A stretch of 64,000 bases of DNA, taken from positions 139,130 through 203,129 of the forward strand of contig JBAZTV010000002.1 of assembly GCA_041661765.1 (NCBI GenBank). Reading direction: 5' to 3'. This document shows positions 25,667-62,829 of this stretch, piece by piece. The notes under the pieces were generated by a model. That model did no database searches. It saw only the letters and a list, made by a program, of their open reading frames with translations, and was not told the DNA's origin. Position 1 is the stretch's first letter, and every line of letters begins with the position of its first letter. This stretch comes from Candidatus Shapirobacteria bacterium (GTDB lineage Bacteria; Patescibacteriota; Microgenomatia; UBA12405). The position numbers and the translations under genes are program-made.

Positions 25667-25710
25667 TTTATCACGCCCAAAAATATGGGTTTGATTAATC
25701 AAACCCCTAC
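25655..25710. promoter_or_regulatory. paired GC-rich palindromes at a gene junction
   Basis: Imperfect GGGGTGTGAT-tt-ATCACGCCC (25657-25679) overlaps the TGA stop of the upstream gene. Perfect 20-mer GGGTTTGATTAATCAAACCC (25687-25706) overlaps the ATG of the downstream gene. Confidence 0.4.
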
Positions 25711-26320: not shown

Positions 26321-26321
26321 T

Positions 26322-30378: not shown

Positions 30379-30379
30379 A

Positions 30380-31291
30380 ATGGATTTATCAGTCATAATT
30401 TTAAATTACAACTCTGCCGATTATCTAAAAAAATGTCTCGAAAGCATTACTAAATCAGATATTGATAATTATAAATATGAGGTAATTATTGTTGACAATA
30501 ATTCCACCGACGACAGCATAAAATTATCAAAGTCTATCCATTCACCTAATTTTAAATATCTCGAATTAAAAACTAATCAGGGTTTTGCTCACGGCAATAA
30601 TCAGGGTTTAAAAGAAATAAACCCAAAAATCAGACTCGTTCTTTTTCTAAACCCCGACACTATTGTTCAAAAAGACACTTTCAAAAAAATGATCGAATTT
30701 TTTAATCAAAACAAAAATATCGACGCTGCCACTTGCCAAATCAATTTAGCTCTCACCGGGAAAATGCAACCAGAATGCCATCGTGGTTTTCCTACCCCTT
30801 GGAATTCTCTGTGTTATTTTACAGGTCTGTCAAAATTATTTCCCCATTCAAAAATATTCTCCGGCTATTTTATGGGCAATTTAGACAAAACTGTTCCACA
30901 TAAAATTGATGCCTGTGTCGGCGCTTTTCTAATGGTCAAAAAAGAAGTCGGCGACAAAATCAAATGGTGGAATGAAAAATATTTTTTCTATGGTGAAGAT
31001 CTTGATTTTTGTTATCAATTAAAACAAAATAATTTTAATTTATATTTTAATCCAAATTGTAAAATAACCCATTTTCAGGGAGTTTCTTCTGGTTTAATTA
31101 ACAAAAGCAAACATCTTTCCAAAGCCTCACGACAAACTAAAATCAAAGTTGCTAAAGCCAGCACTCAAGCCATGAGAATTTTTTATCAAGAAAATTTATT
31201 TTCCCATTATTCAATTTTCACCAAATTTTTAGTCATGTCCGGCATTCAATTACTAGAACTCAAAAGAGTCTTCAAAGCCAAATATTTATGA
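30380..31291 (+). CDS. glycosyltransferase family 2
   Basis: MDLSVIILNYNSADYLKKCLESI...IIVDNNSTDDS. Confidence 0.75.
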   Translation: MDLSVIILNYNSADYLKKCLESITKSDIDNYKYEVIIVDNNSTDDSIKLSKSIHSPNFKYLELKTNQGFAHGNNQGLKEINPKIRLVLFLNPDTIVQKDTFKKMIEFFNQNKNIDAATCQINLALTGKMQPECHRGFPTPWNSLCYFTGLSKLFPHSKIFSGYFMGNLDKTVPHKIDACVGAFLMVKKEVGDKIKWWNEKYFFYGEDLDFCYQLKQNNFNLYFNPNCKITHFQGVSSGLINKSKHLSKASRQTKIKVAKASTQAMRIFYQENLFSHYSIFTKFLVMSGIQLLELKRVFKAKYL

Positions 31292-32412
31292 AACAACATA
31301 TTGTTATCGATGCTCGTCTCTACGGATCTAAACACACTGGCATTGGCCGTTACACTAAAAATCTTCTCAAAGCCTTAACTGAATTGTCCGATTTTAAAAA
31401 ATATAAATTCACCTTAATTATTTACACAAATTTAGAAAACGAAATCAAAAAAGATTTAGGCGACAATTTTAATTATGTCACCACTAATATCCAACATTAC
31501 TCTCTAAATGAACAGCTTTTTTTACCTTTTTTAATTTATAAATTAAATCCCGATTTGGTCCACTTTACCCATTTTAATAAACCGATTCTTTATTTCAAAA
31601 AATCAGTCGTCACCATTCATGATTTAATCAAACATTTTTCTAAAGGCAAAGACACCACCACTAAAAACCAATTTTTATACCAAATAAAATATTTTTTTTA
31701 TCTAATTTTAATTCGCATCACTATTACTCAAAATCAAATAATTGTCCCCAGTAACTACTGGCGTGATTTTTTAATCAAAAAATATCATTTAAAAGATTTT
31801 CGAATCATTACTACTTATGAAGCTGTCGATCCAACTTTCTTAACCAATACTAAAAACGAAATCATTATTAAAAACCCCAAAAACTATTTGGTTTATACCG
31901 GCAATCTTTATCCTCATAAAAACATTATTATTGTTTTAAAAGCCCTTCAAAAACTACCAGACATCAAATTAAAAATTATTTGTGCTCGTGATTTTTTTAG
32001 CGAAAAATTATCAAAACAAATTAATCATCTAAAACTTAAAAAACAAGTTGAATTTCTCGGTTATCTCGACGACAAACAATTTAAAGAAGTTTATAAACAA
32101 GCCTTAGCTTTAATTCATCCGTCTTTAATGGAAGGTTTCAGCCTTACTGGTCTTGAAGCCATGGCTCTAAATTGCCCTGTAATTTCTTCAAATGCAAGCT
32201 GTCTCCCTGAAATTTATGGCGATTCTGTTCTTTATTTCGACCCAAATAATTCCGATGAATTAGTCCAAAAAATTAATCAATTAAAAAACAATTTGGAGCT
32301 ACGTCAAAAATTAATTAATCTCGGACATCAGCAAATCAAAAAATATTCTTGGAATAAAACCGCCAAAAAAACCATGGCCGTTTATGAAAAATTATTATGC
32401 GAAACGAAGTGA
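31288..32412 (+). CDS. glycosyltransferase family 4
   Basis: 374 aa. HPSLMEGFSLTGLEAMALNCPVISSNASCLPEIYG. Confidence 0.75.
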   Translation: MKQHIVIDARLYGSKHTGIGRYTKNLLKALTELSDFKKYKFTLIIYTNLENEIKKDLGDNFNYVTTNIQHYSLNEQLFLPFLIYKLNPDLVHFTHFNKPILYFKKSVVTIHDLIKHFSKGKDTTTKNQFLYQIKYFFYLILIRITITQNQIIVPSNYWRDFLIKKYHLKDFRIITTYEAVDPTFLTNTKNEIIIKNPKNYLVYTGNLYPHKNIIIVLKALQKLPDIKLKIICARDFFSEKLSKQINHLKLKKQVEFLGYLDDKQFKEVYKQALALIHPSLMEGFSLTGLEAMALNCPVISSNASCLPEIYGDSVLYFDPNNSDELVQKINQLKNNLELRQKLINLGHQQIKKYSWNKTAKKTMAVYEKLLCETK

Positions 32413-33512
32413 AGTCCGCCTCTGGTGGAAAAAAGCCAAAAATTGCTCTGTTCTATGATTGGTTAAATCAATGGGGTGGAGCCGAAAAAGTTTTACTTGA
32501 CTTAATTAAACTTTATCCTGAAGCTCCAATTTATACACTTGTCCACGATCCAAAAAAAACTAAATGGCTTCCAAAAAATACTAAAATTATTGCCTCATTT
32601 ATAAACAATCTTCCATTTTCAAAAAACAATCCAATTTTTTACACTCCATTATATTCAATTGCTCTCGAACAATTTGATTTTTCTCAATACGACATCATTA
32701 TTTCTACTACCCAAGTCTGCGGTCACTGTTTTATAACTCAACCAAAAACTCTTTACGTTTGCTATTTCCATAATATTAATCGTTACGTTTATCAAACTCC
32801 GCCCCAATTCCAAATTTTAAAACCGCTTCTAAATCAATATAAAAAAATAGATTTTGTTTATGGTCAACGACCTAACTATTTGTTTTGTAATTCAAAAACA
32901 GTTCAAAAGAGAATTAAAAATGCCTACAAAAGAGAAGCAAAAATAATTTATCCTGGCATCGACACTTCTTTTTTTATTCCTTCAAAAATAAATCCAACTG
33001 AAAAATATTTTTTAATTGTTTCCCGTCTAGTTTCCCATAAAAAAATCGATCTAGCCATTAAAGCCTGTCATAGATTGAATCAAAAATTATACATTGTCGG
33101 CACCGGCCGCGATAAAAATAAATTAATTAATCTAATCGATTCCATAAATGATTCAAATATAAAATTATTAGGAAAGGTTGATAATAATAAATTATTAAAT
33201 CTTTATCAAAATTGTCAGGCTTTAATTTGCCCTCAGTTAGAAGATTTTGGTCTAACTCCACTCGAAGCCCAAGCTTGTGGTAAACCAATTATTGCCTATA
33301 ATAAGGGAGGTTTAACTGAAACTATAAATTTAAAAACCGGAATATTTTTTAAAAATCAAACCGTAAAAAGTATTATTCATGCCATCAAAAAATTTAATCC
33401 CAAAGATTTTTCGCCATCTGATTGTATTTCTAATGCTGCCAAATTTTCTATCCAAAATTTTATGCTAAACTTTAAAAAAGAAATTAACCTCTTATGGCAG
33501 AATCATCAATAA
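32397..33512 (+). CDS. glycosyltransferase family 4
   Basis: 371 aa. The N-terminus KSASGGKKPKIALFYDWLNQWGGAEKVLLDL includes a mini-element-like sequence (32415-32437). Confidence 0.7.
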   Translation: MRNEVKSASGGKKPKIALFYDWLNQWGGAEKVLLDLIKLYPEAPIYTLVHDPKKTKWLPKNTKIIASFINNLPFSKNNPIFYTPLYSIALEQFDFSQYDIIISTTQVCGHCFITQPKTLYVCYFHNINRYVYQTPPQFQILKPLLNQYKKIDFVYGQRPNYLFCNSKTVQKRIKNAYKREAKIIYPGIDTSFFIPSKINPTEKYFLIVSRLVSHKKIDLAIKACHRLNQKLYIVGTGRDKNKLINLIDSINDSNIKLLGKVDNNKLLNLYQNCQALICPQLEDFGLTPLEAQACGKPIIAYNKGGLTETINLKTGIFFKNQTVKSIIHAIKKFNPKDFSPSDCISNAAKFSIQNFMLNFKKEINLLWQNHQ

Positions 33513-34588
33513 AACACTATATTTTTATTCTTTGCGGTGGAACCGGTCCCCGTCTTTGGCCTCTATCTCGAAAAAGCAAGCCTAAACAATTTCTCTCTTT
33601 TTTTAATAAAAAATCGATTTTAGAACAGACGATTAAAAGATCTCAACGTATTGCCGATAATAAAAATATTTACATCGTTTCTGGAAATGATTATATCGAT
33701 CGAATCCTTAAAATTGCCAAAGACTTTAATTTAACTAAAAACATAATTATTGAACCAGAAAAGAAAAATACCGCTCTGGCTATTCTTTTTGCCACTATCA
33801 AAATTAAACAAATAGACCCTAATGCTATCATTAGCACTTTTCCTTCTGATCACTACATTAAAAACACCGCTCGTTTAAAACAAACTCTCAATAAAGCTAA
33901 AACAATCGCTAATATTACTGACACCATTGTCACTATTGGTATTAAACCCACCAAACCAGATTCATCATATGGCTATATTTGCCCCAACCAAAAAATAGAC
34001 GATTACTACAATGTCTCCAAATTCATCGAAAAACCAAATCTTAAAAAAGCCGAAAAATTAATTGAAAAAAAATCTTACTGGAATTCAGGTATTTATACTT
34101 TTTCCGTTTCCACTTTGCTTTCTGAATTTGAAAAATTACAACCAGATTATTTTAACATAGCCATGGATTTAGAAAAAAATTTAGACTATCCAAAAAAAAT
34201 AGAACAAATATATAAACAATCTCCAAATTTATCCATTGATAAAGCTATCTCCGAAAAAACATCAAAAATAACTATGGTTCCAGCAACTTTCGATTGGAAT
34301 GATATTGGCGAATGGCATACTATTTTCAAAAGTTTACCCAAAAAAAAAGATAACAATGCTATTATTGACTCTAAAACTCAATTTTTAAGTACTAACTCCC
34401 AAAATTGTTTGATTTCTGGTCAAGATAAAAAATTAATCGGATTAGTTGGTGTGAATAATTTAGCTATAATTGACACTCCCGACGCTCTTTTAATTTGTAA
34501 TTTAGACTCTAGTTATAACGTTCGAGATTTAGTAAGCTTGATGGTGAAAAGTAAAAAATACAAAAAATACTTTTTAAATGAAAAATGA
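33494..34588 (+). CDS. manC: mannose-1-phosphate guanylyltransferase (NTP-transferase)
   Basis: The N-terminus YIFILCGGTGPRLWPLSRKSKPKQFL is the ManC/CpsB signature. Confidence 0.7.
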   Translation: MAESSIKHYIFILCGGTGPRLWPLSRKSKPKQFLSFFNKKSILEQTIKRSQRIADNKNIYIVSGNDYIDRILKIAKDFNLTKNIIIEPEKKNTALAILFATIKIKQIDPNAIISTFPSDHYIKNTARLKQTLNKAKTIANITDTIVTIGIKPTKPDSSYGYICPNQKIDDYYNVSKFIEKPNLKKAEKLIEKKSYWNSGIYTFSVSTLLSEFEKLQPDYFNIAMDLEKNLDYPKKIEQIYKQSPNLSIDKAISEKTSKITMVPATFDWNDIGEWHTIFKSLPKKKDNNAIIDSKTQFLSTNSQNCLISGQDKKLIGLVGVNNLAIIDTPDALLICNLDSSYNVRDLVSLMVKSKKYKKYFLNEK

Positions 34589-35223
34589 AAAAAATATTAT
34601 TCAAAATATTCAAAAGAACAATTGATTTTATTAGTTCATTATTTCTTCTCATTTTATTTTCCCCAATTATATTAATTACAATGATATTAATTAAAATCAG
34701 CTCTCCAGGTCCAATTTTCTTTAGACAAAAAAGAGTCGGTAAAAACAATCACCAATTTTGGATGTACAAATTCCGTTCCATGTATACTGGTGATAATGAT
34801 AAAAGACTAAGAGAAAATTACCCTGAACTTTGGAAAAAATATAAAGACGGTGGTTGGAAATTAGAAATGTCCCAAGATCCTCGTATCACCCCAATCGGTA
34901 AAAAAATTAGATCTCTCACTATCGACGAATTTCCTCAACTAATTAATGTACTAAAAGGGGATATGAGTTTGGTTGGACCCAGAGCCTATCGAGAAGAAGA
35001 ACTTCAAGAACAAGAAAAAAAATATCCTAAAACCAAAAAATATATTGATATTATTAGATCCGCTAAACCAGGCATTACCGGTGTTTGGCAAACTAGTGGT
35101 CGAAATGATATTTCTTTCGAACAACGAGCCAAAATGGATGCCGAATATATTAAAAAACAATCATTTTTTGATGAAATACTTATAATTTTAAAAACTCCAA
35201 CATCTATGTTGTCTCGTTGGTAA
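34585..35223 (+). CDS. initiating sugar-phosphate transferase (bacterial sugar transferase, WbaP/PglC-like)
   Basis: One N-terminal TM helix, then SPGPIFFRQKRVGKNNHQFWMYKFRSM...DEFPQLINVLKGDMSLVGPRA. Confidence 0.8.
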   Translation: MKKILFKIFKRTIDFISSLFLLILFSPIILITMILIKISSPGPIFFRQKRVGKNNHQFWMYKFRSMYTGDNDKRLRENYPELWKKYKDGGWKLEMSQDPRITPIGKKIRSLTIDEFPQLINVLKGDMSLVGPRAYREEELQEQEKKYPKTKKYIDIIRSAKPGITGVWQTSGRNDISFEQRAKMDAEYIKKQSFFDEILIILKTPTSMLSRW

Positions 35224-42667: not shown

Positions 42668-43969
42668 ATGGTTCAAAAATTAAAAAACGTCCTTCTCCAT
42701 CTACCAAAAAGTTTTTTTTACAATTTAAAGTACGGTTTTCCAAGTAAAAAATTAACTCTAATTGGTATCACTGGAACAGACGGTAAAACTACTACTTGCA
42801 CCCTAGTCAATGAAATATTAAAACAATCTGGTCTAAAAACTGGGTTAATCACTACTATTGGTGCAAAAATTGGCGATAAAGAAATAGATACTGGTTTTCA
42901 CACCACCACTCCAGATCCATCTATTCTCCAAAAAATTTTTACCGATATGGTAAAGGCTGGAATAACCCATGTTGTCTGCGAAGTTACCTCACATGCTCTT
43001 GATCAATACCGTTTTTGGGGTTGTAATTTTGAAGTTTCTGGTATCACCAATACCTCACACGAACATCTCGATTATCATAAAAATATAGAATCTTATATTG
43101 GAACTAAAGCTAAGCTTTTTTCAATTTCTAAAAGTGCTGTTTTAAATAAAGACGATCAATCTTTCGACATAATTAAAAAACAAATCAAAATCCCTTTTAA
43201 AACATTTAGTATTAAAAAAACTTCAGATTATCAAGCCCAAAAAATTAAATTAGATTCAAATTCATTAAGTTTTCATGTTAATGGTCAAAAATTTACCACC
43301 GACAGTAATTATGAATATCAGGTTTATAACATTCTGTTGGCCACTGCAATTTGTTATAAATTAGAAATAAATTCAGAAATAATTCAACGAGTAATAAAAC
43401 ATTTTCCAGAAACAAAAGGTCGTCGAGAAGAAATCCAAAATGACCTTAAATTTAAAACAATCATTGATTTTGCTCACACTCCATTTGCTCTTGAATCATC
43501 ACTTTCTTCACTTAACAAAACTAATCAAGGAAATACTATCGTTATTTTTGGAGCCACTGGTGGACGAGACCAAAGTAAACGCCCAATAATGGGTGAAATT
43601 GTTTCTAAGTTAGCCAACATCGCCTTAATCACTTCGGATGATACTAGAAACGAAAAAATAGAAAATATTAATAAACAAATAATAAGTGGTATTGATCCAA
43701 AAAAATCAGAACTAATTGATTATCAAGAAATTAAAAATAAAAAGCAAATTCAAAAAGTACTCGAATTATCCAATAAAAAATTTATATATTTTAATATTCC
43801 CAATCGTCAAGACGCCTTTAATTTAGCCATAAAATTAGCTCAACCAAACGATGTTGTTATTGCCTGTGGTAAGGGCCATGAAACCACTATTCTCCATGGA
43901 CACACTGAATATCCCTGGTCGGAAGCAGAAGCTTTTAGAACTGCCTTCAGACTTCGAAAAACAAAATAA
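42668..43969 (+). CDS. murE: UDP-MurNAc-tripeptide synthetase (MurE-type Mur ligase, short N-terminus)
   Basis: P-loop IGITGTDGKTTT, GATGGRDQSKRPIMG and TSDDTRNE, which is a variant of the DNPR motif with the Arg retained. Confidence 0.7.
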   Translation: MVQKLKNVLLHLPKSFFYNLKYGFPSKKLTLIGITGTDGKTTTCTLVNEILKQSGLKTGLITTIGAKIGDKEIDTGFHTTTPDPSILQKIFTDMVKAGITHVVCEVTSHALDQYRFWGCNFEVSGITNTSHEHLDYHKNIESYIGTKAKLFSISKSAVLNKDDQSFDIIKKQIKIPFKTFSIKKTSDYQAQKIKLDSNSLSFHVNGQKFTTDSNYEYQVYNILLATAICYKLEINSEIIQRVIKHFPETKGRREEIQNDLKFKTIIDFAHTPFALESSLSSLNKTNQGNTIVIFGATGGRDQSKRPIMGEIVSKLANIALITSDDTRNEKIENINKQIISGIDPKKSELIDYQEIKNKKQIQKVLELSNKKFIYFNIPNRQDAFNLAIKLAQPNDVVIACGKGHETTILHGHTEYPWSEAEAFRTAFRLRKTK

Positions 43970-43970
43970 T

Positions 43971-44579
43971 ATGACTCAGTTTAATTTAAAAAATACCAAT
44001 AATATTGATCAAAATTATAAAAATGGTCTCCTTCCTCAAAGAAACGACAAAAATTTATTTTATTCTCAATCCAGCAGCCGTTCTAATTTAAAAAACTTCA
44101 ACTTAAATTCAGAAAATCGCCGAATTTTAAGAAAAACAGATGACTTTAGTTTTGAGAAAATGCTTTTAAAAGATTTTAATTATAACGTCAAAGTTCAAAA
44201 AGAAATCTCTACTTGGATAAAAACACTTGATTGGAATTTTCCAATAAGTTCAATTAAAAATGTTTTCAAAAATCATATTTTTAATTATATATATATATGG
44301 AAAGATAAACAAAAAAATATCATTGCTTACTCTCTTTGTTATTTCTCAAAAGATATTAGCCATATCGCCTACGTTTTTTACAACCCAAAATTAACCCATG
44401 AAAATTTACCTATCCGCTTAGTTTTACAAGTCATTATCGACAGCCAAAAATTAGGTCTAAAATATTGTTATCTCGGTCGCTTTTCTCAAGATATTGGTTT
44501 TTACAAAAGAAATATGCCAGGTTTTGAATATTTTGAAAACAATCAATGGCTTCCATATAAAAATTTGTTTAAAATTTAA
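43971..44579 (+). CDS. ATE/Bpt-like aminoacyl-tRNA--protein transferase-fold protein (GNAT-like), Cys-less
   Basis: The C-terminus LGLKYCYLGRFSQDIGFYKRNMPGFEYFENNQW resembles the ATE_C core (GLxYxYLGYWI...KMxYKxxFxPxExL...W). The N-terminal F.L.S.ENRRILRK resembles ATE_N. Confidence 0.4.
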   Translation: MTQFNLKNTNNIDQNYKNGLLPQRNDKNLFYSQSSSRSNLKNFNLNSENRRILRKTDDFSFEKMLLKDFNYNVKVQKEISTWIKTLDWNFPISSIKNVFKNHIFNYIYIWKDKQKNIIAYSLCYFSKDISHIAYVFYNPKLTHENLPIRLVLQVIIDSQKLGLKYCYLGRFSQDIGFYKRNMPGFEYFENNQWLPYKNLFKI

Positions 44580-44581
44580 TT

Positions 44582-45955
44582 ATGCATATTCATATTTTAG
44601 GAATCGCCGGAACTATGACTGCCTCATTAGCCATCGCCCTAAAAAAAGAAGGGCACGTTATTACTGGTTCAGATCAAGAAAAAATTTATCCACCTATTAG
44701 TACTATTCTCAAAAAAGCCAACATCAAAATCAATTCTTCAAAAATTAATTCGACTATAGATTTAGCCATAATTGGTTCATCTTTTTCTAATTTTCAAAAA
44801 ACCAAAGAAGAGCTTGAGCAAATAAAAAAATTAAATATCAAATATATTTCCGCCAGTGAGTTTATTGCCCAAAATTTAAGCAAAGAAGACTCTATCTTAA
44901 TTGCCGGAACCTACGGTAAAACCACTATTTCCTCTCTTGTCTCTTGGATTTTTGATCAGGCCAATTTAAACCCCAATTATATGTTCGGCGGAAAAGCACT
45001 TAATCATTTTCCCTCAGTTAATATCTCCCCATCAAATTGGTCTATTATCGAAGCCGATGAATCAATTCATGGTCTCGACACTCAAGCCAAATTTTTATAT
45101 TACCCAGTCAAATTTTTATTACTAACTAGTGCTGATTGGGAACACAAAGATTCTTATTCCACCGAAATTGAAAATTTTAATGCCTTTAAAAAATTAATTT
45201 TAAATGTTCCCACTGATGGAATTTTATTTATAAATTCCCAAGGATATCAAACAAAAGAACTAAGTCTTTATTCAAAATCAAAAATAATTACCTATAATTC
45301 ACCAACTTCTGATTATTTTATAAAAAATATAAAAATCAAAAAAAATTTTTCCATTTTAGACATCAAAACTCCTAGAAATATTATCCAAATCAAAACTAAA
45401 TTAATTGGCCAATTCAACTTTGAAAACATTTTAGCCGCCATCACTATTGTTGATAGTTTAAATATTCCCCAAACTAAAATTAAACAAGCCATTTCAAAAT
45501 TTAAAGGTATTAATCGTCGAATTGAAAAAATTTATGATCATGGAAATATTATTATATTTGATGATTTTGCCCAATCTTCCAATAGAATAAAATCAACTAT
45601 TGCTGCTATAAAATTTCATTATCCAAAAAATAATATCAAAATTTTATACCAACCTCACGCTTCCTTTATTCAACACAAGAAAAGCCTAAAAGAATTTAAA
45701 AACGTTTTTGATTCAGTTTCTGAAGTCGTCTTGTCTAAATTAAGTTTTAATCATAAAGTTGAAAAAAATAATCGTGTCACTGCCAAAGATTTTAAAGAGG
45801 TGGTTGGTAATAAATTAATATATCTTCCCATCGATAAAGATATTTGTTCTTTTTATAAAAAAAATCTCAAAAGTGGCGATATTTTAATTAATATGAGCTC
45901 TGGCGGTTTTAGTGGAAATAAAATTGTAAAATCTATTATTAATTCTTTAAAATAA
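44582..45955 (+). CDS. Mur ligase of the MurC/Mpl clade, with Mpl-like N-terminal signature
   Basis: MHIHILGIAGTMTASLAIALKKEGHVITGSDQEKIYPPISTIL (IHILGIxGTxMxxLA and YPPMST are Mpl-typical). P-loop GTYGKTT. Confidence 0.65.
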   Translation: MHIHILGIAGTMTASLAIALKKEGHVITGSDQEKIYPPISTILKKANIKINSSKINSTIDLAIIGSSFSNFQKTKEELEQIKKLNIKYISASEFIAQNLSKEDSILIAGTYGKTTISSLVSWIFDQANLNPNYMFGGKALNHFPSVNISPSNWSIIEADESIHGLDTQAKFLYYPVKFLLLTSADWEHKDSYSTEIENFNAFKKLILNVPTDGILFINSQGYQTKELSLYSKSKIITYNSPTSDYFIKNIKIKKNFSILDIKTPRNIIQIKTKLIGQFNFENILAAITIVDSLNIPQTKIKQAISKFKGINRRIEKIYDHGNIIIFDDFAQSSNRIKSTIAAIKFHYPKNNIKILYQPHASFIQHKKSLKEFKNVFDSVSEVVLSKLSFNHKVEKNNRVTAKDFKEVVGNKLIYLPIDKDICSFYKKNLKSGDILINMSSGGFSGNKIVKSIINSLK

Positions 45956-45958
45956 TCT

Positions 45959-47287
45959 ATGTCCAGATATATCATTAATGGTGGTAAACCACTTAAAGGT
46001 GAAGTTTCTATTAGAGGTGCCAAAAATGCCAGTTTTAAACAAATTATCGCTTCCATGTTAACCGATAAAACAGTTCAATTAAATAATGTTCCAAAAATTT
46101 CAGATGTCAAAATAACCACCAGTATCGCCAAAAGTTTAGGTTGTCAAATAAACCAAATAGGGGATCACAGTCTAGAATTAAAAACTTCTAAAATAACTAA
46201 TTCAACAGTGCCCAATGGTACTGGTGAAAAATCTAGAACCTCATTTATATTTGTCGCCCCATTACTCACCAGAACTGGAACTGCCATTGTTCCTACTCCA
46301 GGCGGCGATAAATTAGGTAATAGACCATTAGACCGTCTTTTTGATTGTTTTTCAAAAATGAATATTCATTTTTCTGAAACTGAAAATAATATTACATTTA
46401 ACACCGACAAAATTATCGGCACTCATTATACTTTTACAAAACCTTCTCATACCGTCACCGAAGTAATCCTTATGACTGCCACTCTCGCTAACGGCGAAAC
46501 CATCATCGACAACGCTGCTCTTGAACCAGAAATCGATGACTTAATCTTAATGCTAAATCAGATGGGAGCTAATATTCAAAGAGATCTAAAAAATAATAAA
46601 AGAATAATTATTCAAGGTGTATCTAAATTAAAAGGAACTGAACATGATGTAATTTGCGATCGAAATGAAATAGTCACTTTCGCTTGTGCCGCTTTAGCTA
46701 CTAAAGGGTCAGTCTCTATTTTTAGAGTCAAACCAAAAGTTGTTCAAACATTTTTAGAAATTATTGAAAAAATGGGGGCTAAAATTAAAACTGGTAATGA
46801 TGAAATTTATGTTGAATGGGTTAAGCCTTTGACCAATATTGATATTGAAACTGGACCAGAACCAGAATTTATGACCGATTGGCAGGCTATTTTTTCTGTT
46901 CTATTAACTCAAACCGTTGGTTGTAGTTCTATTATCGAAAAGGTCTATCCTAGCCGATTTCAACACATTGAAAATCTTAAAAAAATGGGAGTTAAGGTTA
47001 ATTTTTTCAATCCAGAAATAAATAATCCGAACGAATATTATCAATTTAATAAAGAAAGTGATCGTCCTGAATATTTTCATGGTGTTAAAATTTATGGCCC
47101 TACCAAATTAAAACCATCTAATTTTGTTATTAAAGATCTTCGAGCTGGAGCCTCAGCTACAATTGCTGCTCTAACCGCATCTGGTAAATCAACTATTGAT
47201 GGAGTCGAGTATATTGAGAGGGGATATGAAAAATTAGCTGAGCGTCTTTGGTCTCTAGGTGCTAATATAGAATATATAAAAACATAA
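45959..47287 (+). CDS. murA: UDP-N-acetylglucosamine 1-carboxyvinyltransferase
   Basis: MSRYIINGGKPLKGEVSIRGAKNASFKQIIASML...LDRLF. 442 aa. Confidence 0.9.
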   Translation: MSRYIINGGKPLKGEVSIRGAKNASFKQIIASMLTDKTVQLNNVPKISDVKITTSIAKSLGCQINQIGDHSLELKTSKITNSTVPNGTGEKSRTSFIFVAPLLTRTGTAIVPTPGGDKLGNRPLDRLFDCFSKMNIHFSETENNITFNTDKIIGTHYTFTKPSHTVTEVILMTATLANGETIIDNAALEPEIDDLILMLNQMGANIQRDLKNNKRIIIQGVSKLKGTEHDVICDRNEIVTFACAALATKGSVSIFRVKPKVVQTFLEIIEKMGAKIKTGNDEIYVEWVKPLTNIDIETGPEPEFMTDWQAIFSVLLTQTVGCSSIIEKVYPSRFQHIENLKKMGVKVNFFNPEINNPNEYYQFNKESDRPEYFHGVKIYGPTKLKPSNFVIKDLRAGASATIAALTASGKSTIDGVEYIERGYEKLAERLWSLGANIEYIKT

Positions 47288-47290
47288 TTT

Positions 47291-48325
47291 ATGATTCATC
47301 TATATCTAGGACTACTTCTCTTTTCTTTTTTAATCACCAGTATTTTAGTTATACCTTTCATTAACCTTCTCTATAAATTTAAATTTCAACGACAAACTCA
47401 AAAAACCACTGACTTCCAAAACAAAAGAACTACCATATTCGACAAATTTCACAATCTAAAATCAGGGACACCTGTTGGTGGCGGATTATTGATTATCGCC
47501 ACTGTTTCCATTCTTTTTATATTACTTTTTCCAATTCTTAAATTTTCTCGAATCTTTATTTCATCCAATTACACTATCACCCATGAAATCGCTATTCTAT
47601 TTTTTACTTTCATTAGTTTTGGTATGCTCGGTCTTTATGACGACGTACACAAATTTTTCGGATTCAAAAATACTGGATTCTTCGGCCTAAAAATGATCCA
47701 TAAATTAATTTTACAAATAATAATTTCATTAATCATTTCCTTTATGATTTATTTTCAATTAAAAATTGATTTTATTTATCTACCGTTTTTTGGCGCTATT
47801 AATTTAGGATTTTTCTTTATCCCTATTTCCGTCATTTTTATCACTGGCTTTGCTAATTTCTTTAATATTACTGATGGCTTAGACGGTTTATCTGGCGGAC
47901 TTTTAATGTTTGCTCTTTTTGCGTTTTGGATTTTAGCCAGCACTTCAATGGATACTGTTCTCTCTTCATTTTTAGCTCTCTGGATCGGTTCTCTAATAGC
48001 ATTTCTTTATTTTAATGTTTATCCAGCCAGAATCTGGCTCGGCGATGTTGGGTCACTCTCTTTCGGTGCCACTTTTGCTGTAATTGCTTTACTTTTAGGA
48101 AAAGTCGTTCCTTTAATTATAGTAGGAGCTCCATTCATTATTGAAGGTTTATCCAGTGCTATTCAACTATTCAGTAAAAAATATTTTCATAAAAAAGTTT
48201 TTCCCGCTGCTCCAATTCACCTTACTTTCCAAAACATGGGTTGGGAAGAGCCAAAAATCGTTTTCAGGGCTTGGCTAGCCGGAATTATATTAGCAGTATT
48301 TGGACTATGGTTAGGACTAAATTAG
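47291..48325 (+). CDS. mraY: phospho-N-acetylmuramoyl-pentapeptide transferase
   Basis: FANFFNITDGLDGLSGG and LGDVGSLSFGA motifs. 10 TM helices. Confidence 0.9.
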   Translation: MIHLYLGLLLFSFLITSILVIPFINLLYKFKFQRQTQKTTDFQNKRTTIFDKFHNLKSGTPVGGGLLIIATVSILFILLFPILKFSRIFISSNYTITHEIAILFFTFISFGMLGLYDDVHKFFGFKNTGFFGLKMIHKLILQIIISLIISFMIYFQLKIDFIYLPFFGAINLGFFFIPISVIFITGFANFFNITDGLDGLSGGLLMFALFAFWILASTSMDTVLSSFLALWIGSLIAFLYFNVYPARIWLGDVGSLSFGATFAVIALLLGKVVPLIIVGAPFIIEGLSSAIQLFSKKYFHKKVFPAAPIHLTFQNMGWEEPKIVFRAWLAGIILAVFGLWLGLN

Positions 48326-48846
48326 AACTACAACAAGAGATAGAGAAATATATCGGCTTACCTTATAGTAAGAATATCCTTAAAGACGACAAAATAATCA
48401 AAGAACAATTTCTTGGAGGTAAAGGCAATTGTCGACAAATAGCTACAGAAACTATCCGACTTGCCCAAAAACAAAAAATAGATTTAATTCAATTAAATAA
48501 CCAAGAATTTTATAATTTTCAAAAAAAGAACCATATCGGTATTGATTGTTCTGGCCTTGCCTGTCAATTATTAAATTTTTATTTTAATTCAGAATTAAAT
48601 CCTCGCCAAACTTCCGCCAACATATTGACCTCCACTCCAATTTCAAAAGAAATAAAACCAAATGAAATTAAAACAGGAGATTTGATCCGACAAAAAAACG
48701 GTCATCATGTCTTATTTATCATCGACAAACAAGGCAACACCATTAATTATGTCGACAGTTCATTTTCCGGCAGGGGAGTAAGATATGGAACTGCCGACCT
48801 CACCAATAAATCATTTATCCACCAAGGCTTCTTTCGATTAATTTAA
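48307..48846 (+). CDS. NlpC/P60-like papain-fold cysteine peptidase (putative cell-wall hydrolase)
   Basis: Internal ATG at 48307. The ORF-track start is a TTG inside mraY. IGIDCSGLACQLL provides the catalytic Cys and GDLIRQKNGHHVLFII the His. Confidence 0.4.
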   Translation: MVRTKLELQQEIEKYIGLPYSKNILKDDKIIKEQFLGGKGNCRQIATETIRLAQKQKIDLIQLNNQEFYNFQKKNHIGIDCSGLACQLLNFYFNSELNPRQTSANILTSTPISKEIKPNEIKTGDLIRQKNGHHVLFIIDKQGNTINYVDSSFSGRGVRYGTADLTNKSFIHQGFFRLI

Positions 48847-48861
48847 AATAAAAATCAAAAT

Positions 48862-49020
48862 CTATTTTTCCTCGATTAATTCTCGATATTTTAGTGGAGT
48901 CAAAGATAAAATCTCTACCTCAGTCCCACATTCAGGACATTCAATAATATCTCCCACCATTGTGGCTTCTATTAATTCAATTTCTGTTTCACAATCTGGA
49001 CAAATAACTTTTTCGTTCAT
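48862..49020 (-). CDS. 52-aa LysW-like double CPxCG zinc-ribbon protein (absent from the ORF track)
   Basis: The minus-strand translation is MNEKVICPDCETEIELIEATMVGDIIECPECGTEVEILSLTPLKYRELIEEK. Compare Thermus LysW, ...CPECGAELRL...CEDCGAELEVVGLDPLRLE... The C-terminus ends EEK, not the acceptor EDWGE. Confidence 0.45.
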   Translation of the reverse strand: MNEKVICPDCETEIELIEATMVGDIIECPECGTEVEILSLTPLKYRELIEEK

Positions 49021-49060
49021 GTTTTATTAAAATTAATAACTAGTATAATTAAACTATTAT

Positions 49061-49882
49061 ATGGCAAATACACCTTTAATTAAATTAGAAAATGTTTATC
49101 TAAAAAGAGAAGACTTAAACGAAACCGGCTCAGCTAAAGATCGAGCCATGATTTTTCAAATCGAAAATTTAAAAAAACAGGGTTTTAAAACTGCTGTCAT
49201 TTCCAGCACTGGCAATGCCGCCATTTCCGCCGCCTATTTTTGCCACCTTAATCAAATTGACCTAACAATTTTTGTTTCCCCTAAAATCAATAAAACTAAA
49301 TTTGATTTACTCAAAAAGGATGGTGGTCAAATTTTTATTACCGATCAACCAATTAGTGAATCCATAAAATTTTCCAAAAAAAATCACTCCTATCTTCTTC
49401 GTCAATCCACCGACCCCAGTGCCCTAATTGGTTACCAAGAAATTGGCAAAGAATTAATGAATAAACTACCCCAAATTACAAGTATTTTTGTTCCAGTTGG
49501 CAGTGGTACAACCCTTCTAGGAATTTCTCAAACATTGACATCATCAGTTAAAATCTATGCCACTCAACCAGCCAGTAATTGTCCTTTATCAAAATTTTTT
49601 GATTCAAATTATCAACCAGAAACAGAAAATATCACCGATGCACTTTCCGCTAAATATCTTCCTTTAAAATCTCAAATAATTTCTACCATTAAAAACAGTG
49701 GTGGCACTGGTCTGGTCGTTCAAAATAATGAAATTTTAGAAGCCCAAAAAATACTAGAATCAAATAAAATAAAAACATCTCTAGAAGGTGCTTTAGCTTT
49801 TGCTGGCTTTAAAAAAGCCACTAAAAATAATCTAAATATAGGCAGTTATCCAGTAGTGATTCTAACCGGATGCCAAAGATAA
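49061..49882 (+). CDS. PLP-dependent fold-type II enzyme (threonine synthase / Trp-synthase-beta-like)
   Basis: TPLIKLENVYLKREDLNETGSAKDRA carries the PLP Lys. Then STGNAAISAAYF and a Gly-rich loop VGSGTT. At 273 aa it is short. Confidence 0.55.
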   Translation: MANTPLIKLENVYLKREDLNETGSAKDRAMIFQIENLKKQGFKTAVISSTGNAAISAAYFCHLNQIDLTIFVSPKINKTKFDLLKKDGGQIFITDQPISESIKFSKKNHSYLLRQSTDPSALIGYQEIGKELMNKLPQITSIFVPVGSGTTLLGISQTLTSSVKIYATQPASNCPLSKFFDSNYQPETENITDALSAKYLPLKSQIISTIKNSGGTGLVVQNNEILEAQKILESNKIKTSLEGALAFAGFKKATKNNLNIGSYPVVILTGCQR

Positions 49883-50982
49883 ATCTAGAAACCACTATTA
49901 ATAAATCGCCTTATATTTTCTTTTTTTTAGTCGTCGATAAATTTTTAGATATCGAAATCCCTCAATTAACAAAATTCGAAAAAATTTATCTTTCCGACTA
50001 TCCCTCAATTAAAGAAAAAAACAGCGGCAAATTACTATCAAACCCAAAAGTTATTGACTACATTTTAAAAAAATCTCAAAAGACTAAACTCATTCCTGCC
50101 ATAATTCCTTTTAAACCATCCGCTAAAATTGATTTTTTGTGTCAAAAATATAATTGGATAAATATTAGTAATCCTAGCCCTATTAATCGTTTTTTAGAAG
50201 ACAAAATTAAATTTGCCAAACTTAGTCAAAAATACAAATTACCAACCATTCCTTTTTCCATTGATAATTTTTCTCAAAAAAATTTTTTAAAATATCAAAA
50301 ACTTTATAATAAAAAATTAGTTCTTCAAACCCACTTTGGTTGGGCTGGTAATAGCACATTTTCAGCCGAATCTTGGAATGAAATTAAAGATAAAATTTCT
50401 TCTGATGTTATTGTAAAATACAGCCCCTTTATTAAATCTTCTTATTCCTTATTAAATAATTGTTGTCTTACTAAATTTGGTCTAATTCAAAGTCCACCTG
50501 CTCTTCAATACACTGGAATTTATCCCTATACAAAAAATCCCTTCACTACTGTCGGTCGGCAATGGCCATCTTTTGCTCCCTTAAAAATAACCAATGAAAT
50601 TAATAAAATAACTGAAAATTTCAGTAAAATTTTGAAAGAAATCGGTTATAAAGGTTTTTTTGGTCTCGATTTTTTAATTTATAAAAATAAAGTTTTTTTA
50701 TTAGAATGTAACCCTCGTCTAACCGCATCCTTTGGTTTTTATACAAAAATAGAACAAAAACAAAATATCACTCCTCTTTTCTATTTTCATATTGTTGAAT
50801 TCTTAAAAACTAATTATCAAATTAACCTAAAACAAGAGCAATCAAGATTCAATAATAAAAAAATTATCGGTTCTGAGTTAACCACAAAAGATAAAAATAA
50901 TCACACTCATCAAAAACTAAATTTTGATTACCCTTTATCAAAAACCACCAATCCTATCTCTATTTCCCAAAAAATTAAATGA
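49870..50982 (+). CDS. ATP-grasp carboxylate-amine ligase of unknown specificity
   Basis: GFFGLDFLIYKNKVFLLECNPRLTASFGF is a typical ATP-grasp C-domain. 370 aa. Confidence 0.55.
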   Translation: MPKINLETTINKSPYIFFFLVVDKFLDIEIPQLTKFEKIYLSDYPSIKEKNSGKLLSNPKVIDYILKKSQKTKLIPAIIPFKPSAKIDFLCQKYNWINISNPSPINRFLEDKIKFAKLSQKYKLPTIPFSIDNFSQKNFLKYQKLYNKKLVLQTHFGWAGNSTFSAESWNEIKDKISSDVIVKYSPFIKSSYSLLNNCCLTKFGLIQSPPALQYTGIYPYTKNPFTTVGRQWPSFAPLKITNEINKITENFSKILKEIGYKGFFGLDFLIYKNKVFLLECNPRLTASFGFYTKIEQKQNITPLFYFHIVEFLKTNYQINLKQEQSRFNNKKIIGSELTTKDKNNHTHQKLNFDYPLSKTTNPISISQKIK

Positions 50983-56640: not shown

Positions 56641-59493
56641 ATGTCTAAATTTAAGAATATTCCTAATAATGTCAGTTTTCCTGCACTCGAAGAAGAAATA
56701 ATTTCTTTTTGGAAAGAAAACAAAATTTTTGAAAAATCAGTTGATCAAAGATCAGACAAAAACACTTACACTTTTTACGATGGTCCTCCATTTATAACAG
56801 GAATGCCTCATCACGGCCACTTATTATCTAGTATCGCCAAAGACATCATTCCTCGATATCAAACCATGAAAGGCAAAAAAGTTAAACGAGTTTGGGGTTG
56901 GGATTGTCATGGTCTTCCTGCTGAAAATAAAGTTGAAGAAAGACTTGGTCTAAAATCCAAAAAAGATATTGAACAAATTGGTATTCGTCGATATATTGAT
57001 GAATGTTATTCTTATGTTCAGAATGTTTCTCAAGAATGGGAATGGTACATCGACCATATTGGTCGTTGGGTAGATTTTAAAAATGCCTATAAAACCATGG
57101 ATTTAAACTATATGGAGACTGTTATGTGGGTTTTTTCCGAGTTATATAAAAAGGGGTTAATTTACAAAGGTCGTCGAATTTCTTTATATTGTCCTCGTTG
57201 TTCCACCCCACTTTCCAATTTCGAAATCGCCATGGATAATTCCTACAAAGAAGTCGAAGATCCCGCTATCTCTATAAAATTTAAGTTAAAAAATAAAGAT
57301 GCTTATATTTTAGCTTGGACCACCACTCCTTGGACTCTTCCAGGAAATTTAGCTTTAGCCGTAAATAAAAATGAAGATTATGTTGAAGTTTTAGTTAATC
57401 AAGAAAAAATAATTTTAGCCAAAGCCCGATTAGAAACCGTTTTAGCTAATCAAAAATATGAAATTATTAAAGAATTTAAAGGTCAAGAATTAATTGGCCT
57501 TTCTTATCAACCTCTTTATAGTTTTTTTACCCAAACTCTTCCTGATTATAAAATATATCATGCCGATTTTGTGTCTATGACCGACGGCACTGGCATTGTC
57601 CATATCGCCCCTGGCTTTGGTGAAGATGATTCCGCCCTAGGTAAAGAAAATAATTTATCCGTCATCGATCATGTCGATGATGAAGGAAAAATAATTGAAC
57701 AAGTGACTCCCTTTGCTGGACTATTTGTAAAAAAAGCTGACCCTTTAGTTATTGATGATTTAAAATCCAGAAACTTAATTTTTAAAGAAGAAAAAATCAA
57801 ACACAGTTATCCTTTTTGTTATCGCTGCGGCACTCCGTTAATTTATAAATCTCAAACTGCTTGGTATCTTAACGTTCAATCTATAAAAGATGGCATGAAA
57901 ACCACCAATCAAAAAATAAATTGGATTCCGGAACATATTAAAAATGGTCGTTTTGGGCAGGGGATTGAAACCGCTCCAGATTGGTGTCTTTCTCGATCTC
58001 GATATTGGGCCTCTCCAATTCCAGTTTGGGAATGTGATTGTGGTGAAAAATATGTTCCAAACTCAATTGCTAATTTAGAAGCTAAATCTGGTCAAAAGGT
58101 AACTAATCTTCACAAACCAGATATTGACGAAGTCACCATTAAATGTGATAAATGTGGAAAAGAAGTCCATCGGGTTACTGAAGTTTTAGATTGTTGGTTT
58201 GAATCCGGCGCCATGCCTTATGCTGAACGCCATTATCCGTTTGAAAATAAAGATAAATTAAAAAAAGAATTTCCCGCTGATTATATAGTTGAATATATCG
58301 GTCAAACTCGAGGCTGGTTTTACACCCTTCACGTTTTATCCAATGCCTTATTTAAATCAGAATCTTTTAAAAATTGCGTTGTCACGGGTACTATTATGGG
58401 CACTGATGGTCGTAAAATGAGTAAACTTTTCAAAAATTACCCTGATCCAAAAATGGTTATTCAAAAATATAGTGGAGAAGCTATGCGTTTATATTTAATG
58501 GGCGGTGTCATTATGGTTGGTGAAAATATGAATATCAACGAGAAAGAAATAGAGGATAAAGTTAAATTTGTTCTTTTACCTCTTTGGAATTGTCTTAAAT
58601 ATCTCAACACTTATGCTCAAATGCACGATTGGACTCCTGCTTTAAATTCCAAAAATAATTCCACTAATATTCTTGATCAATGGATTATCACTAGAACTGA
58701 TCAGTTAACTCAAGAATTTGCCCAAGAATTGGATAAATATATTATTCCTAATGCTGTTAAATTAATAACTCCTTACATTGAAGATTTATCTCGTTGGTAC
58801 ATTCGCCAATCACGAGATCGATTTGTTAACGGAGACAAAAAAGCTCTTCAAACCCTATGGCAAGTTTTAGTTCAATTTATAAAAACTACTGCTCCATTAA
58901 TGCCATTTATCACTGAATATTTTTATCAAAATTTAGTTTTACCTTTCAATTCAAAAGCCTCTGAGTCTATTCATTTAGAACTTTATCCAGAAACAAAACA
59001 AATTAATCAACAGTTATTAGCCAATATGGTTTATGTTAGAGAAATTTGTGAACAGGGTAATATGATTAGAAAAACTAGCAATTTAAGCACTCGACAACCA
59101 TTGTCTAAAGCCACTATTAATAGTTCTAAAAAAATAAATTTGGATAAATCTTCATTAGACATTATAAAAAATGAATTAAATGTTAAAGCCGTAGAGACGA
59201 CCAATCTGGGCGTCTCAGACCAAAGTATCAACAATGTCTCAGACCAAAATCTAACAGTCACTCTAGATACTAATATCACTCCAAAATTAAAAGCTGAAGG
59301 TGATACTCGCGATTTAATTCGTCAAATTCAAAGTCTTCGTAAAGAAAACCAATTAAACCTTAAAGATAAAATCAAAATTTTTGCCCCAACTTGGCCAGTC
59401 GATTTTGAAAAAGAAATTTTAATAAAAACACTCGGAGTTAGTATTGAAAAATCAGAAAATGTCACGATCTCTCTGGCTTCCAACTCTAATTAG
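56641..59493 (+). CDS. ileS: isoleucine--tRNA ligase (type 2, no C-terminal Zn domain)
   Basis: FYDGPPFITGMPHHGH (HIGH region), RKMSKL (KMSKS) and the WCLSRSRYW editing-domain motif. 950 aa. Confidence 0.9.
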   Translation: MSKFKNIPNNVSFPALEEEIISFWKENKIFEKSVDQRSDKNTYTFYDGPPFITGMPHHGHLLSSIAKDIIPRYQTMKGKKVKRVWGWDCHGLPAENKVEERLGLKSKKDIEQIGIRRYIDECYSYVQNVSQEWEWYIDHIGRWVDFKNAYKTMDLNYMETVMWVFSELYKKGLIYKGRRISLYCPRCSTPLSNFEIAMDNSYKEVEDPAISIKFKLKNKDAYILAWTTTPWTLPGNLALAVNKNEDYVEVLVNQEKIILAKARLETVLANQKYEIIKEFKGQELIGLSYQPLYSFFTQTLPDYKIYHADFVSMTDGTGIVHIAPGFGEDDSALGKENNLSVIDHVDDEGKIIEQVTPFAGLFVKKADPLVIDDLKSRNLIFKEEKIKHSYPFCYRCGTPLIYKSQTAWYLNVQSIKDGMKTTNQKINWIPEHIKNGRFGQGIETAPDWCLSRSRYWASPIPVWECDCGEKYVPNSIANLEAKSGQKVTNLHKPDIDEVTIKCDKCGKEVHRVTEVLDCWFESGAMPYAERHYPFENKDKLKKEFPADYIVEYIGQTRGWFYTLHVLSNALFKSESFKNCVVTGTIMGTDGRKMSKLFKNYPDPKMVIQKYSGEAMRLYLMGGVIMVGENMNINEKEIEDKVKFVLLPLWNCLKYLNTYAQMHDWTPALNSKNNSTNILDQWIITRTDQLTQEFAQELDKYIIPNAVKLITPYIEDLSRWYIRQSRDRFVNGDKKALQTLWQVLVQFIKTTAPLMPFITEYFYQNLVLPFNSKASESIHLELYPETKQINQQLLANMVYVREICEQGNMIRKTSNLSTRQPLSKATINSSKKINLDKSSLDIIKNELNVKAVETTNLGVSDQSINNVSDQNLTVTLDTNITPKLKAEGDTRDLIRQIQSLRKENQLNLKDKIKIFAPTWPVDFEKEILIKTLGVSIEKSENVTISLASNSN

Positions 59494-62755: not shown

Positions 62756-62829
62756 GGTTGTTTAGCTCAGTTGGTTAGAGCGTTCCGTTCACATCGGAGA
62801 GGTCACAGGTTCGAATCCTGTAACAACCA
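62756..62829 (+). tRNA. tRNA-Val (anticodon CAC)
   Basis: GGTTGTT acceptor, GCTCAGTTGGTTAGAGC D-arm, TTCCG-TTCACAT-CGGAG anticodon arm, ACAGG-TTCGAAT-CCTGT T-arm, AACAACC-A. CCA is not encoded. Confidence 0.85.

Follow-up and report, generated by a model that had tools for sequence, protein, structure and literature searches.

Gene Organization at the Locus

The window, meaning the whole 64-kb stretch of Candidatus Shapirobacteria DNA that was analyzed, has a G+C content of 30.5% and carries a dcw cluster. The genes of the cluster run in the order rsmH, an ftsL-like gene, PBP/ftsI, a MurE-type ligase, an ATE-like gene, a MurC/Mpl-type ligase, murA, mraY, and an NlpC/P60-like gene, followed by a LysW-like gene, a PALP enzyme, an ATP-grasp enzyme, ftsW, murG, an ftsQ-like gene, ftsA, and ftsZ. 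The central features, with the evidence for each, are the following.

42668..43969, + strand: MurE-family ligase without the N-terminal UDP-binding domain 1 (Pfam Mur_ligase_M and Mur_ligase_C only)
43971..44579, + strand: predicted ATE/Bpt-like aminoacyl-tRNA transferase (202 aa, single GNAT-type domain, without the Cys cluster)
44582..45955, + strand: predicted Mpl-type UDP-MurNAc ligase of the MurC/Mpl family (BLASTP, PDB match 3HN7, motifs)
45959..47287, + strand: murA, which supplies the UDP-MurNAc branch (TIGR01072, 409 bits against a cut-off of 392.7)
47291..48325, + strand: mraY (Pfam Glycos_transf_4; TIGR00445, 161.8 bits)
48241..48846, + strand: cytoplasmic NlpC/P60-like peptidase (Pfam NLPC_P60, E = 8.7e-5), whose true start is probably the ATG at 48307
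48862..49020, - strand: LysW-like zinc-ribbon protein of 52 aa (ORF; Pfam Zn_ribbon_LysW on orthologues)
49061..49882, + strand: PLP-dependent (PALP, fold type II) enzyme (Pfam PALP, E = 2.1e-46)
49870..50982, + strand: ATP-grasp ligase (Pfam ATP-grasp_3, E = 2.8e-8; NCBIfam PRK06524, 97.5 bits)

Relative to the E. coli order, the cluster has no murF, murD, murC, or ddl. The canonical slot of murD, which in E. coli lies between mraY and ftsW, is filled by a block of four genes that encode the NlpC/P60-like, LysW-like, PALP, and ATP-grasp proteins. This block is conserved. Orthologues of the LysW-like protein have a C-terminal Lys in all 57 distinct sequences, 54 of them with a terminal EEK. 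No dedicated tRNA gene lies close to the cluster, the sole tRNA gene being a tRNA-Val at 62756-62830. Extension of the contig beyond the window on one side revealed sugar-metabolism genes only.

The ATE-like gene is an intact open reading frame of 202 codons. Its ATG lies 1 nt past the murE stop codon (43967-43969), and its TAA (44577-44579) is separated by a 2-nt spacer from the ATG of the downstream ligase at 44582. The product contains FNLNSENRRILRK at residues 43-55, GLKYCYLGRF at residues 162-171, and FYKRNMPGFEYFENNQW at residues 177-193, and its first Cys does not occur before residue 123. The first-pass annotation of this DNA had described the reading frame at 43971-44579, these strings within a 202-aa product, the lack of an N-terminal Cys cluster, and a position between murE and a MurC/Mpl ligase; all four are present as described, with residues 1-122 free of Cys and with flanking genes of the MurE family (42668-43969) and the MurC/Mpl family (44582-45955). 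The start codon is confirmed by 26 homologues of 60-94% identity, because the N-terminus is conserved among them from Met1 of the 202-aa form. A longer reading frame from 43851, which overlaps murE, was rejected as the gene on the same grounds. A MAG of Candidatus Shapirobacteria encodes an identical protein, and public annotations name the homologues either hypothetical or, in IMG, arginyl-tRNA--protein transferase.

Conservation of the Gene Pair

Genomic context was sampled by a scan of one genome per GTDB species, which gave 78 loci, with others added from look-ups of single proteins and from a scan of metagenomes. About 85 loci are found in Candidatus Shapirobacteria, other Microgenomates, WWE3, and Kaiserbacteria, and in essentially all of them a ligase adjoins the ATE-like gene. 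The ligase is directly downstream in 63 of 69 testable loci, at a median gap of 3 nt; the remaining six comprise three ORF-start artefacts and three loci of Kaiserbacteria/Parcubacteria with the ligase directly upstream. The adjacency persists down to 20-30% identity and in differing genomic contexts; in other Microgenomates and in WWE3 the arrangement is kept down to 28-35% identity.

Co-occurrence with murE in related genomes, which the first-pass annotation had raised, is found in part. In 65 of 71 loci a murE gene immediately precedes the ATE-like gene, but in Kaiserbacteria-type contigs no murE is nearby, and there the ligase-ATE pair alone is conserved while its flanks vary. In one lineage the two genes are fused in frame, giving a 645-aa protein (cluster P0122) that consists of an ATE-like domain, a Pro/Ser-rich linker, and the ligase. 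The fusion has seven members on three contigs and occupies the same operon position; a search for further independent ATE-ligase fusions found this cluster only. The ATE-like gene and the neighboring ligase gene are therefore discussed below as a proposed two-gene unit.

A constant third partner was considered. A YfiH/PgeF-like gene follows the pair in two Kaiserbacteria contigs, and it was rejected in this role since it is absent or elsewhere in three others (L095-L097). The idea that the whole wider family is linked to Mur genes was likewise rejected, as one homologue resides in a Bacteroidota-like gene neighborhood and other distant ones in unrelated contexts. One distant homologue is fused to a PPDK-type ATP-dependent enzyme.

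Family Assignment and Fold

The first-pass annotation had attributed an ATE_C-type core to the protein, and profile searches bear this out. Pfam ATE_C (PF04377) matches the ATE-like protein marginally, at 26.2 bits against a cut-off of 25 (E = 1.4e-5), and it matches 18 of 19 family members, with a best E of 1.4e-8. NCBIfam models for Bpt/arginyltransferase (PRK01305) reach E-values down to 1e-8, their best score being 34.7 bits where the cut-off is 267. When the family profile was compared by hhalign with a canonical Cys-containing Bpt-like protein (P0269, taken from the edge of an exhaustive HMM search), the two aligned over 171 columns with a probability of 96.3% and E = 1.6e-9. The exhaustive search covered 1.84 billion representatives, and the ATE-like family appears small, because only 231 proteins were retrieved at E <= 1e-3.

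An ATE_N-like segment had also been proposed, and this claim holds for the motif and not for the domain. The string FNLNSENRRILRK and its S-x-x-R-R motif are present, whereas ATE_N (PF04376) has no match at E <= 10 in the ATE-like protein or at E <= 1 among 19 members, and the Cys-rich part is missing. Only the C-terminal part of ATE_N is kept, namely an Arg and the S-x-x-R-R motif; the last Cys of the Bpt sequence C-I-S-S-R aligns with Q33 in the hhalign comparison. The FemAB profile (PF02388), the other family suggested at first pass, has no match at E <= 10 in the ATE-like protein and none among the 19 members, and the two tandem GNAT-like domains (335-430 aa) that are a trait of Fem proteins are absent, the ATE-like protein having one domain. 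Profiles for the L/F-transferase Aat (PF03588) and for DUF2156 (the MprF aaPGS domain) do not match the ATE-like protein or family members. Acetyltransf_6, a related GNAT model, matches six distant members of the family.

Searches of PDB sequences with the protein and family profiles gave no usable ATE1 match (Smad at E = 0.07, a terpene synthase at 0.57, human ATE1 at 1.4), so a comparison of folds was needed. An AlphaFold2 model built from a 26-sequence alignment has a pLDDT of 88.2 and a pTM of 0.86. With this model as the query, the top Foldseek matches in the PDB are the ATE1 structures of human, yeast, and K. lactis (E = 2.5e-8, TM 0.66-0.73), ahead of the MprF aminoacyl-PG synthase domain and FemX. 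The ranking upholds the first-pass view that the protein has an ATE/GNAT-like fold shared with Fem enzymes, and by its modeled structure the protein is predicted to be a minimal ATE-type aminoacyl-tRNA transferase domain.

Predicted Active-Site Residues

Roles for individual residues can be assigned from the structure of K. lactis Ate1 (klAte1), in which the catalytic Lys is K304, preceded by an aromatic residue, R80 is needed to recognize N-terminal Asp/Glu acceptors, and E277 is the acidic residue that binds the Arg donor (PMC9351520). In the ATE-like protein, the pair Y178-K179 falls opposite the YK of human ATE1 and of Bpt in the alignments, and all 82 homologues compared have it unchanged. 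K179 is thus the predicted catalytic Lys, a residue in common with FemX. R37, equally invariant (82/82), aligns by hhalign with the Arg of the Bpt sequence CISSR, directly after the Cys cluster, and the conserved CC-P-x-Y-T-I-R context suggests that it is the equivalent of klAte1 R80. Invariant positions in the 82 distinct genome-derived homologues are R37, S47-E48-N49, R51, F136, G169, Y178, K179, and W193.

The donor side of the site is predicted to differ from that of Ate1. The position of E277 is V/T/A154 in the ATE-like family, and the other pocket positions are I132, L150, and C166. Because this predicted pocket is hydrophobic, like that of Bpt, and the Arg-binding acidic residue is replaced, the donor is probably not Arg, and the label arginyl-tRNA transferase used in IMG is probably mistaken on this point. 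The R37/R80 and donor-pocket mappings were made from sequence and profile alignments, not from coordinates.

With an acidic-acceptor Arg and a hydrophobic donor pocket kept as in Bpt, with ATE_C and Bpt models as its sole significant sequence matches, and with homologues labeled arginyl-tRNA--protein transferase in IMG, the protein could be an ordinary Bpt-type N-degron transferase. Its substrates would then be proteins with Asp or Glu at the N-terminus, which it would tag with Leu (or another residue) for ClpS/ClpAP-dependent degradation, and its position in a dcw cluster would be incidental. We consider this very unlikely. The scores fall far under every Bpt equivalog cut-off, the Cys-rich part of ATE_N is missing, and neutral placement does not predict ligase adjacency across contexts at low identity or a gene fusion.

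The Partner Ligase

The ligase encoded at 44582-45955 belongs to a family in which MurC and Mpl must be told apart. By BLASTP it aligns over its full length with E. coli Mpl at 157 bits, as opposed to 99 bits for E. coli MurC, and its best PDB match is 3HN7, the Mpl of P. arcticus. Among 78 partner ligases from the sampled loci, 76 score higher against E. coli Mpl than against E. coli MurC (means of 137.5 and 88.8 bits). Several of these are named Mpl in IMG. The NCBIfam HMMs rank the two families the other way for the ligase of the window (murC 236.8 bits, mpl 178.2 bits), with both scores below cut-off, and for the Kaiserbacteria ligases the two E. coli enzymes give equal scores.

Signature segments shared with Mpl are evident in the consensus of 71 partner ligases. 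This reads GSDQxKIYPPxS, where Mpl has GSDANVYPPMS and MurC has GSDLAPNPVT; DDFA as in Mpl (DDFAHH), where MurC has DDYG; and SSGG near the C-terminus, where Mpl has MSNGGF. After EADE is an insertion of Mpl length, IxGLDxxAKFLYY as compared with CAFFDKRSKFVHY in Mpl, at which MurC is gapped. The Mpl-only segment FFDKRSKF aligns with this insertion, which carries D..AKF..Y, although the FFDKRSK residues themselves are not conserved, and the (S/T)AFFDKRSK motif of Mpl is kept only in part, as LDxxAKF. The Arg pair of the MurC sequence PHRFTR, which holds the carboxylate of the incoming L-Ala, is replaced in the partner ligases by PHASF. From these comparisons the partner ligase is predicted to be Mpl-type rather than MurC-type and, as an Mpl-type enzyme, would attach peptides to UDP-MurNAc.

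MurE, MurF, and the Clusters without MurD

The preceding ligase of the cluster is truncated. Residues 22-419 of the MurE protein align with residues 102-483 of E. coli MurE, domain 1 being absent; the reading frame begins 14 nt past the end of the PBP gene, which leaves no space for that domain. In place of the DAP-specific DNPR of E. coli the protein has DDTR, in which the Arg is kept. MurF is also without domain 1 in related clusters that retain murB, ddl, and murF. As MurE, and MurF in those related clusters, are without domain 1, the Mpl-like enzyme is the only Mur ligase of the cluster with a nucleotide-binding N-domain. The loss of domain 1 from MurE and MurF could also be plain genome streamlining.

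No reading frame best matched by MurD was found in the 64-kb window or in about 90 loci, using iterated searches with three Mur ligases and E. coli MurD queries. Even a cluster with murA, murB, ddl, murF, mraY, murE, and the ligase (L070) is still without MurD. The 64-kb window contains no Mur ligases besides the MurE lacking domain 1 and the Mpl-like enzyme. The absence of MurD and of canonical MurC refers to the dcw clusters and the 64-kb window. For the whole genome we infer that both are absent as well; murB, murF, and ddl must lie elsewhere in the genome (presumably so for murF and ddl), so murD might too.

The block that occupies the murD slot offers other ways to read the locus. The ATP-grasp enzyme could be a real replacement for MurD. 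The ATE-like enzyme could also act on a small molecule or carrier of the cluster, such as the LysW-like protein or the product of the ATP-grasp or PALP enzyme, or could serve as a non-catalytic partner of the ligase. The sharing of an operon with the conserved LysW-like, PALP, ATP-grasp, and NlpC/P60 block speaks for such an acceptor, as does the distant homologue fused to a PPDK-type enzyme. We hold these other acceptors and the non-catalytic role to be unlikely, as the Kaiserbacteria-type pair occurs without this block, and the invariance of the predicted catalytic Lys and of the SENRR motif speaks against an enzyme that has become inactive.

Proposed Route to the Stem Peptide

The gene is best explained as encoding a candidate active, minimal (~200 aa, Cys-less) member of the ATE1/Bpt superfamily that some CPR lineages have taken into service for making peptidoglycan precursors. 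The cytoplasmic Mur pathway offers two amines that could be acylated, namely that of the free amino acid or peptide before ligation and that of the residue-3 side chain after MurE. The first is favored because of the pairing and fusion with a predicted peptide-type ligase, the acidic-acceptor Arg, the hydrophobic pocket, the lack of murD, and the gene order.

Our preferred, still tentative, model has the ATE-like enzyme place L-Ala from aminoacyl-tRNA on a Glu-headed peptide and the Mpl-like ligase join the product to UDP-MurNAc, thereby bypassing MurD; we take this to be the likeliest single reading, at somewhat less than even odds. The transferase would take a small or hydrophobic aminoacyl group from an aminoacyl-tRNA, for which L-Ala from Ala-tRNA is the obvious candidate, and pass it on to a stem-peptide fragment headed by glutamate, whose free alpha-amino group would accept it. 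This fragment would be D-Glu or gamma-D-Glu-diamino acid, and it would come either from the preceding MurE without domain 1 or from scavenging. The resulting peptide, beginning with L-Ala, would then be joined to UDP-MurNAc by the Mpl-like ligase. In this way the energy of the tRNA ester would pay for the L-Ala-D-Glu bond, in place of the MurD reaction, and en bloc attachment of the peptide would take the place of the MurC route. The donor amino acid, the acceptor, and the order of these steps are those that we propose. The gene order murE'-ATE'-mpl', with spacers of 1 nt and 2 nt, matches the proposed order of reactions.

D-Glu is the sole acidic residue of the stem peptide whose amine becomes acylated. 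The residues acylated by the known ATE1 and Bpt enzymes are L-Asp or L-Glu at the N-termini of proteins and peptides, and to our knowledge a D-Glu or iso-glutamyl acceptor is without precedent for them.

The second amine corresponds to the role that the first-pass annotation had suggested, a Fem-like addition to the stem peptide. Here the residue from aminoacyl-tRNA would be placed on the free amine of the position-3 diamino acid in UDP-MurNAc-tri-/pentapeptide or lipid II, and the conserved Arg would bind the neighboring carboxylate of a DAP-type residue. We find this branch-adding role doubtful, and the evidence as a whole does not support it. The partner that is conserved, and once fused, is the Mpl-like ligase rather than MurE, and murE is not near the pair in Kaiserbacteria-type loci. 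A WWE3 cluster (L078) carries a full-length FemX-like gene besides the ATE-like gene. FemAB profiles do not match, and one GNAT domain is present where Fem proteins have two. Because the fused partner is predicted to be Mpl-type, a FemX-like gene coexists, and the acceptor Arg is invariant, the chemistry would more probably take place at the L-Ala/D-Glu end of the peptide.

A variant of the preferred model places the ligase first. Ala-tRNA would provide the amine to which the ligase joins UDP-MurNAc, and the ATE-like enzyme would move the UDP-MurNAc-L-alanyl group to the amine of D-Glu in an ATP-free equivalent of the MurD step. The fusion and pairing, the acidic-acceptor Arg, and the clusters without MurD fit this order of events just as they fit the preferred one, and it would explain a ligase without the MurC Arg pair for the carboxylate of free L-Ala. 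Yet no known transferase of the superfamily takes an aminoacyl-tRNA that is N-acylated and bears a nucleotide sugar, the ligase showed no identifiable feature for RNA binding, and the scheme is entirely inferential; we regard it as highly improbable.

Extended to its lineages, the preferred model would mean that a CPR clade (Shapirobacteria and related Microgenomates, WWE3, and some Kaiserbacteria) builds its stem peptide "peptide-first". MurE and MurF without domain 1 would work on free peptides, the transferase derived from ATE/Bpt would make the L-Ala-D-Glu bond from Ala-tRNA, and the Mpl-type ligase would attach the finished peptide, leaving MurC and MurD dispensable. A generalization of this breadth is possible, if on the doubtful side.

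Relation to Known Systems

The ATE-like protein departs from Bpt and ATE1 in several respects. It is 40-60 residues shorter than Bpt and without the whole Cys cluster of ATE_N; its gene is in a peptidoglycan operon, paired or fused with an Mpl-type ligase and not with aat or clpS-type genes; and its probable acceptor is a stem-peptide fragment as opposed to a protein N-terminus. We know of no role for the ATE/Bpt family outside N-degron proteolysis.

With FemABX/MurM (PF02388) the protein shares the GNAT-derived aminoacyl-tRNA transferase fold, the catalytic Lys (K305 in FemX), and the presumed role, that is, the building of a peptidoglycan peptide from aminoacyl-tRNA. The differences are the single domain of ~200 aa in place of two GNAT domains, a UDP-MurNAc ligase as the partner gene, and a likely site of action at the N-terminal end of the peptide, not at the position-3 side chain. 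The aminoacyl-phosphatidylglycerol synthase domain of MprF (DUF2156) is related in fold without a profile match, and the ATE-like protein is soluble, has no membrane domain, and is encoded in a Mur operon.

Like Mpl, the proposed route would attach a preformed peptide to UDP-MurNAc. Unlike Mpl, the partner ligase is in the dcw operon, is apparently the only MurC/Mpl-type enzyme of the cluster, and is coupled to a tRNA-dependent transferase, and in the model the peptide would be built or completed in the cytoplasm, not merely recovered from turnover.

The Mur pathway (MurC, MurD, MurE, and MurF) is regarded as near-universal among bacteria that have a wall, and antibiotics target it. The tRNA-dependent steps of peptidoglycan synthesis known to us all add side branches and are carried out by Fem/MurM enzymes. 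In the literature available for searching, neither the presence of an ATE/Bpt-type gene in CPR cell-wall operons nor its pairing with Mpl is described. The present locus suggests that CPR bacteria with the ATE-like/ligase pair use charged tRNA for part of the stem peptide in a way that has not been described. A conserved module of an ATE/Bpt-type transferase and an Mpl-type ligase, once fused and found in murD-free operons, is a testable candidate for alternative backbone synthesis.

If the peptide-first route is true, it would be the first tRNA-dependent step in the backbone of the stem peptide rather than in a branch, and it would give the ATE/Bpt family its first non-proteolytic role. Since murC and murD serve as marker genes, it would also have consequences for the scoring of cell-wall capacity in CPR genomes, and it bears on how reduced epibionts obtain peptides that contain D-Glu and DAP. 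Even if the enzyme adds a branch, the aminoacyl-tRNA transferase fold would have been recruited to peptidoglycan synthesis a second time, independently.

The ligase of the WWE3 cluster with the FemX-like gene is itself extended. At 695 aa, it bears an NlpC/P60-like domain as a C-terminal fusion, and the NlpC/P60-like protein of the window matches this extension by BLASTP with E = 4e-15.

Mur Ligases without Domain 1

The MurE-type ligase of the cell-wall and division (dcw) gene cluster (42668-43969, + strand) lacks the entire N-terminal UDP-binding domain 1, its alignment beginning at residue 102 of E. coli MurE. The MurF ligases of related clusters are likewise without domain 1, for example at 15515-16750 of locus L070, from one of the other genomes carrying a homologue of the ATE-like aminoacyl-tRNA transferase. 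Within these clusters, in contrast to both MurE and MurF, only the Mpl-like UDP-MurNAc ligase that is paired with the ATE-like gene retains a nucleotide-binding N-terminal domain.

A Conserved Block at the Usual Position of murD

Between mraY and ftsW, the usual place of murD, is a conserved block of four genes (48241-50982):

Members of the four-gene block
48241-48846, NlpC/P60-like protein
48862-49020, minus strand, LysW-like zinc ribbon
49061-49882, PALP protein
49870-50982, ATP-grasp protein

The zinc ribbon ends in lysine in all 57 distinct orthologues and in ...EEK in 54 of them, whereas the tail of true LysW is EDWGE. The block could lead to a diamino acid by way of a carrier protein, or else be the real substitute for MurD. 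For the NlpC/P60-like open reading frame, the listed TTG start creates an 85-nt overlap with the end of mraY (48241-48325), and the internal ATG at 48307 is more likely to be the start.

Variation around the Pair in Related Genomes

At locus L078, from a candidate division WWE3 metagenome-assembled genome, the Mpl-like ligase (10675-12762) reaches 695 amino acids because an NlpC/P60-like domain is fused at its C-terminus. In this cluster (see also 6170-7189), murE and the ATE-like gene are separated by an inserted FemX-like gene, a sugar aminotransferase gene, and a RelA/SpoT gene.

On two Kaiserbacteria contigs (L080 9784-10668 and L081 11338-12168), the ligase–ATE pair is followed by a gene with a weak match to Cu-oxidase_4, the YfiH/PgeF family. 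Members of this family are proposed editors of position 1 in UDP-MurNAc-peptides. Its presence next to the pair is inconstant across related contigs.

Distant Homologues outside Mur Operons

The distant homologue P0253 (264 amino acids; L088/L089), whose profile match is to Acetyltransf_6 and not ATE_C, is encoded in a Bacteroidota-like neighborhood (GldC-like, FecR, sigma-70), with TMEM164-like and ABC-F genes next to it. The wider family of the ATE-like protein therefore extends beyond CPR and beyond Mur operons. In a second distant homologue, P0183 (809 amino acids; L087 7001-9430), which has a non-dcw context, the ATE-like domain is fused to PPDK_N and a PEP-utilizers mobile domain, an ATP-dependent phosphotransferase-type partner.

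Other Genes of the Window

Directly upstream of the dcw cluster are about 14 co-directional polysaccharide synthesis genes (20749-35223, + strand). Among their products are glycosyltransferases of families GT1, GT2, and GT4, an initiating transferase (Bac_transf), a nucleotidyl transferase, a hexapeptide acyltransferase, and a Wzy-like protein. Besides the ftsW of the dcw cluster, a second FtsW/RodA-family gene (59444-60454, + strand) lies downstream of a class I aminoacyl-tRNA synthetase gene (56641-59493). A giant open reading frame of 2512 amino acids with a TTG start occupies 8454-15992 on the minus strand.
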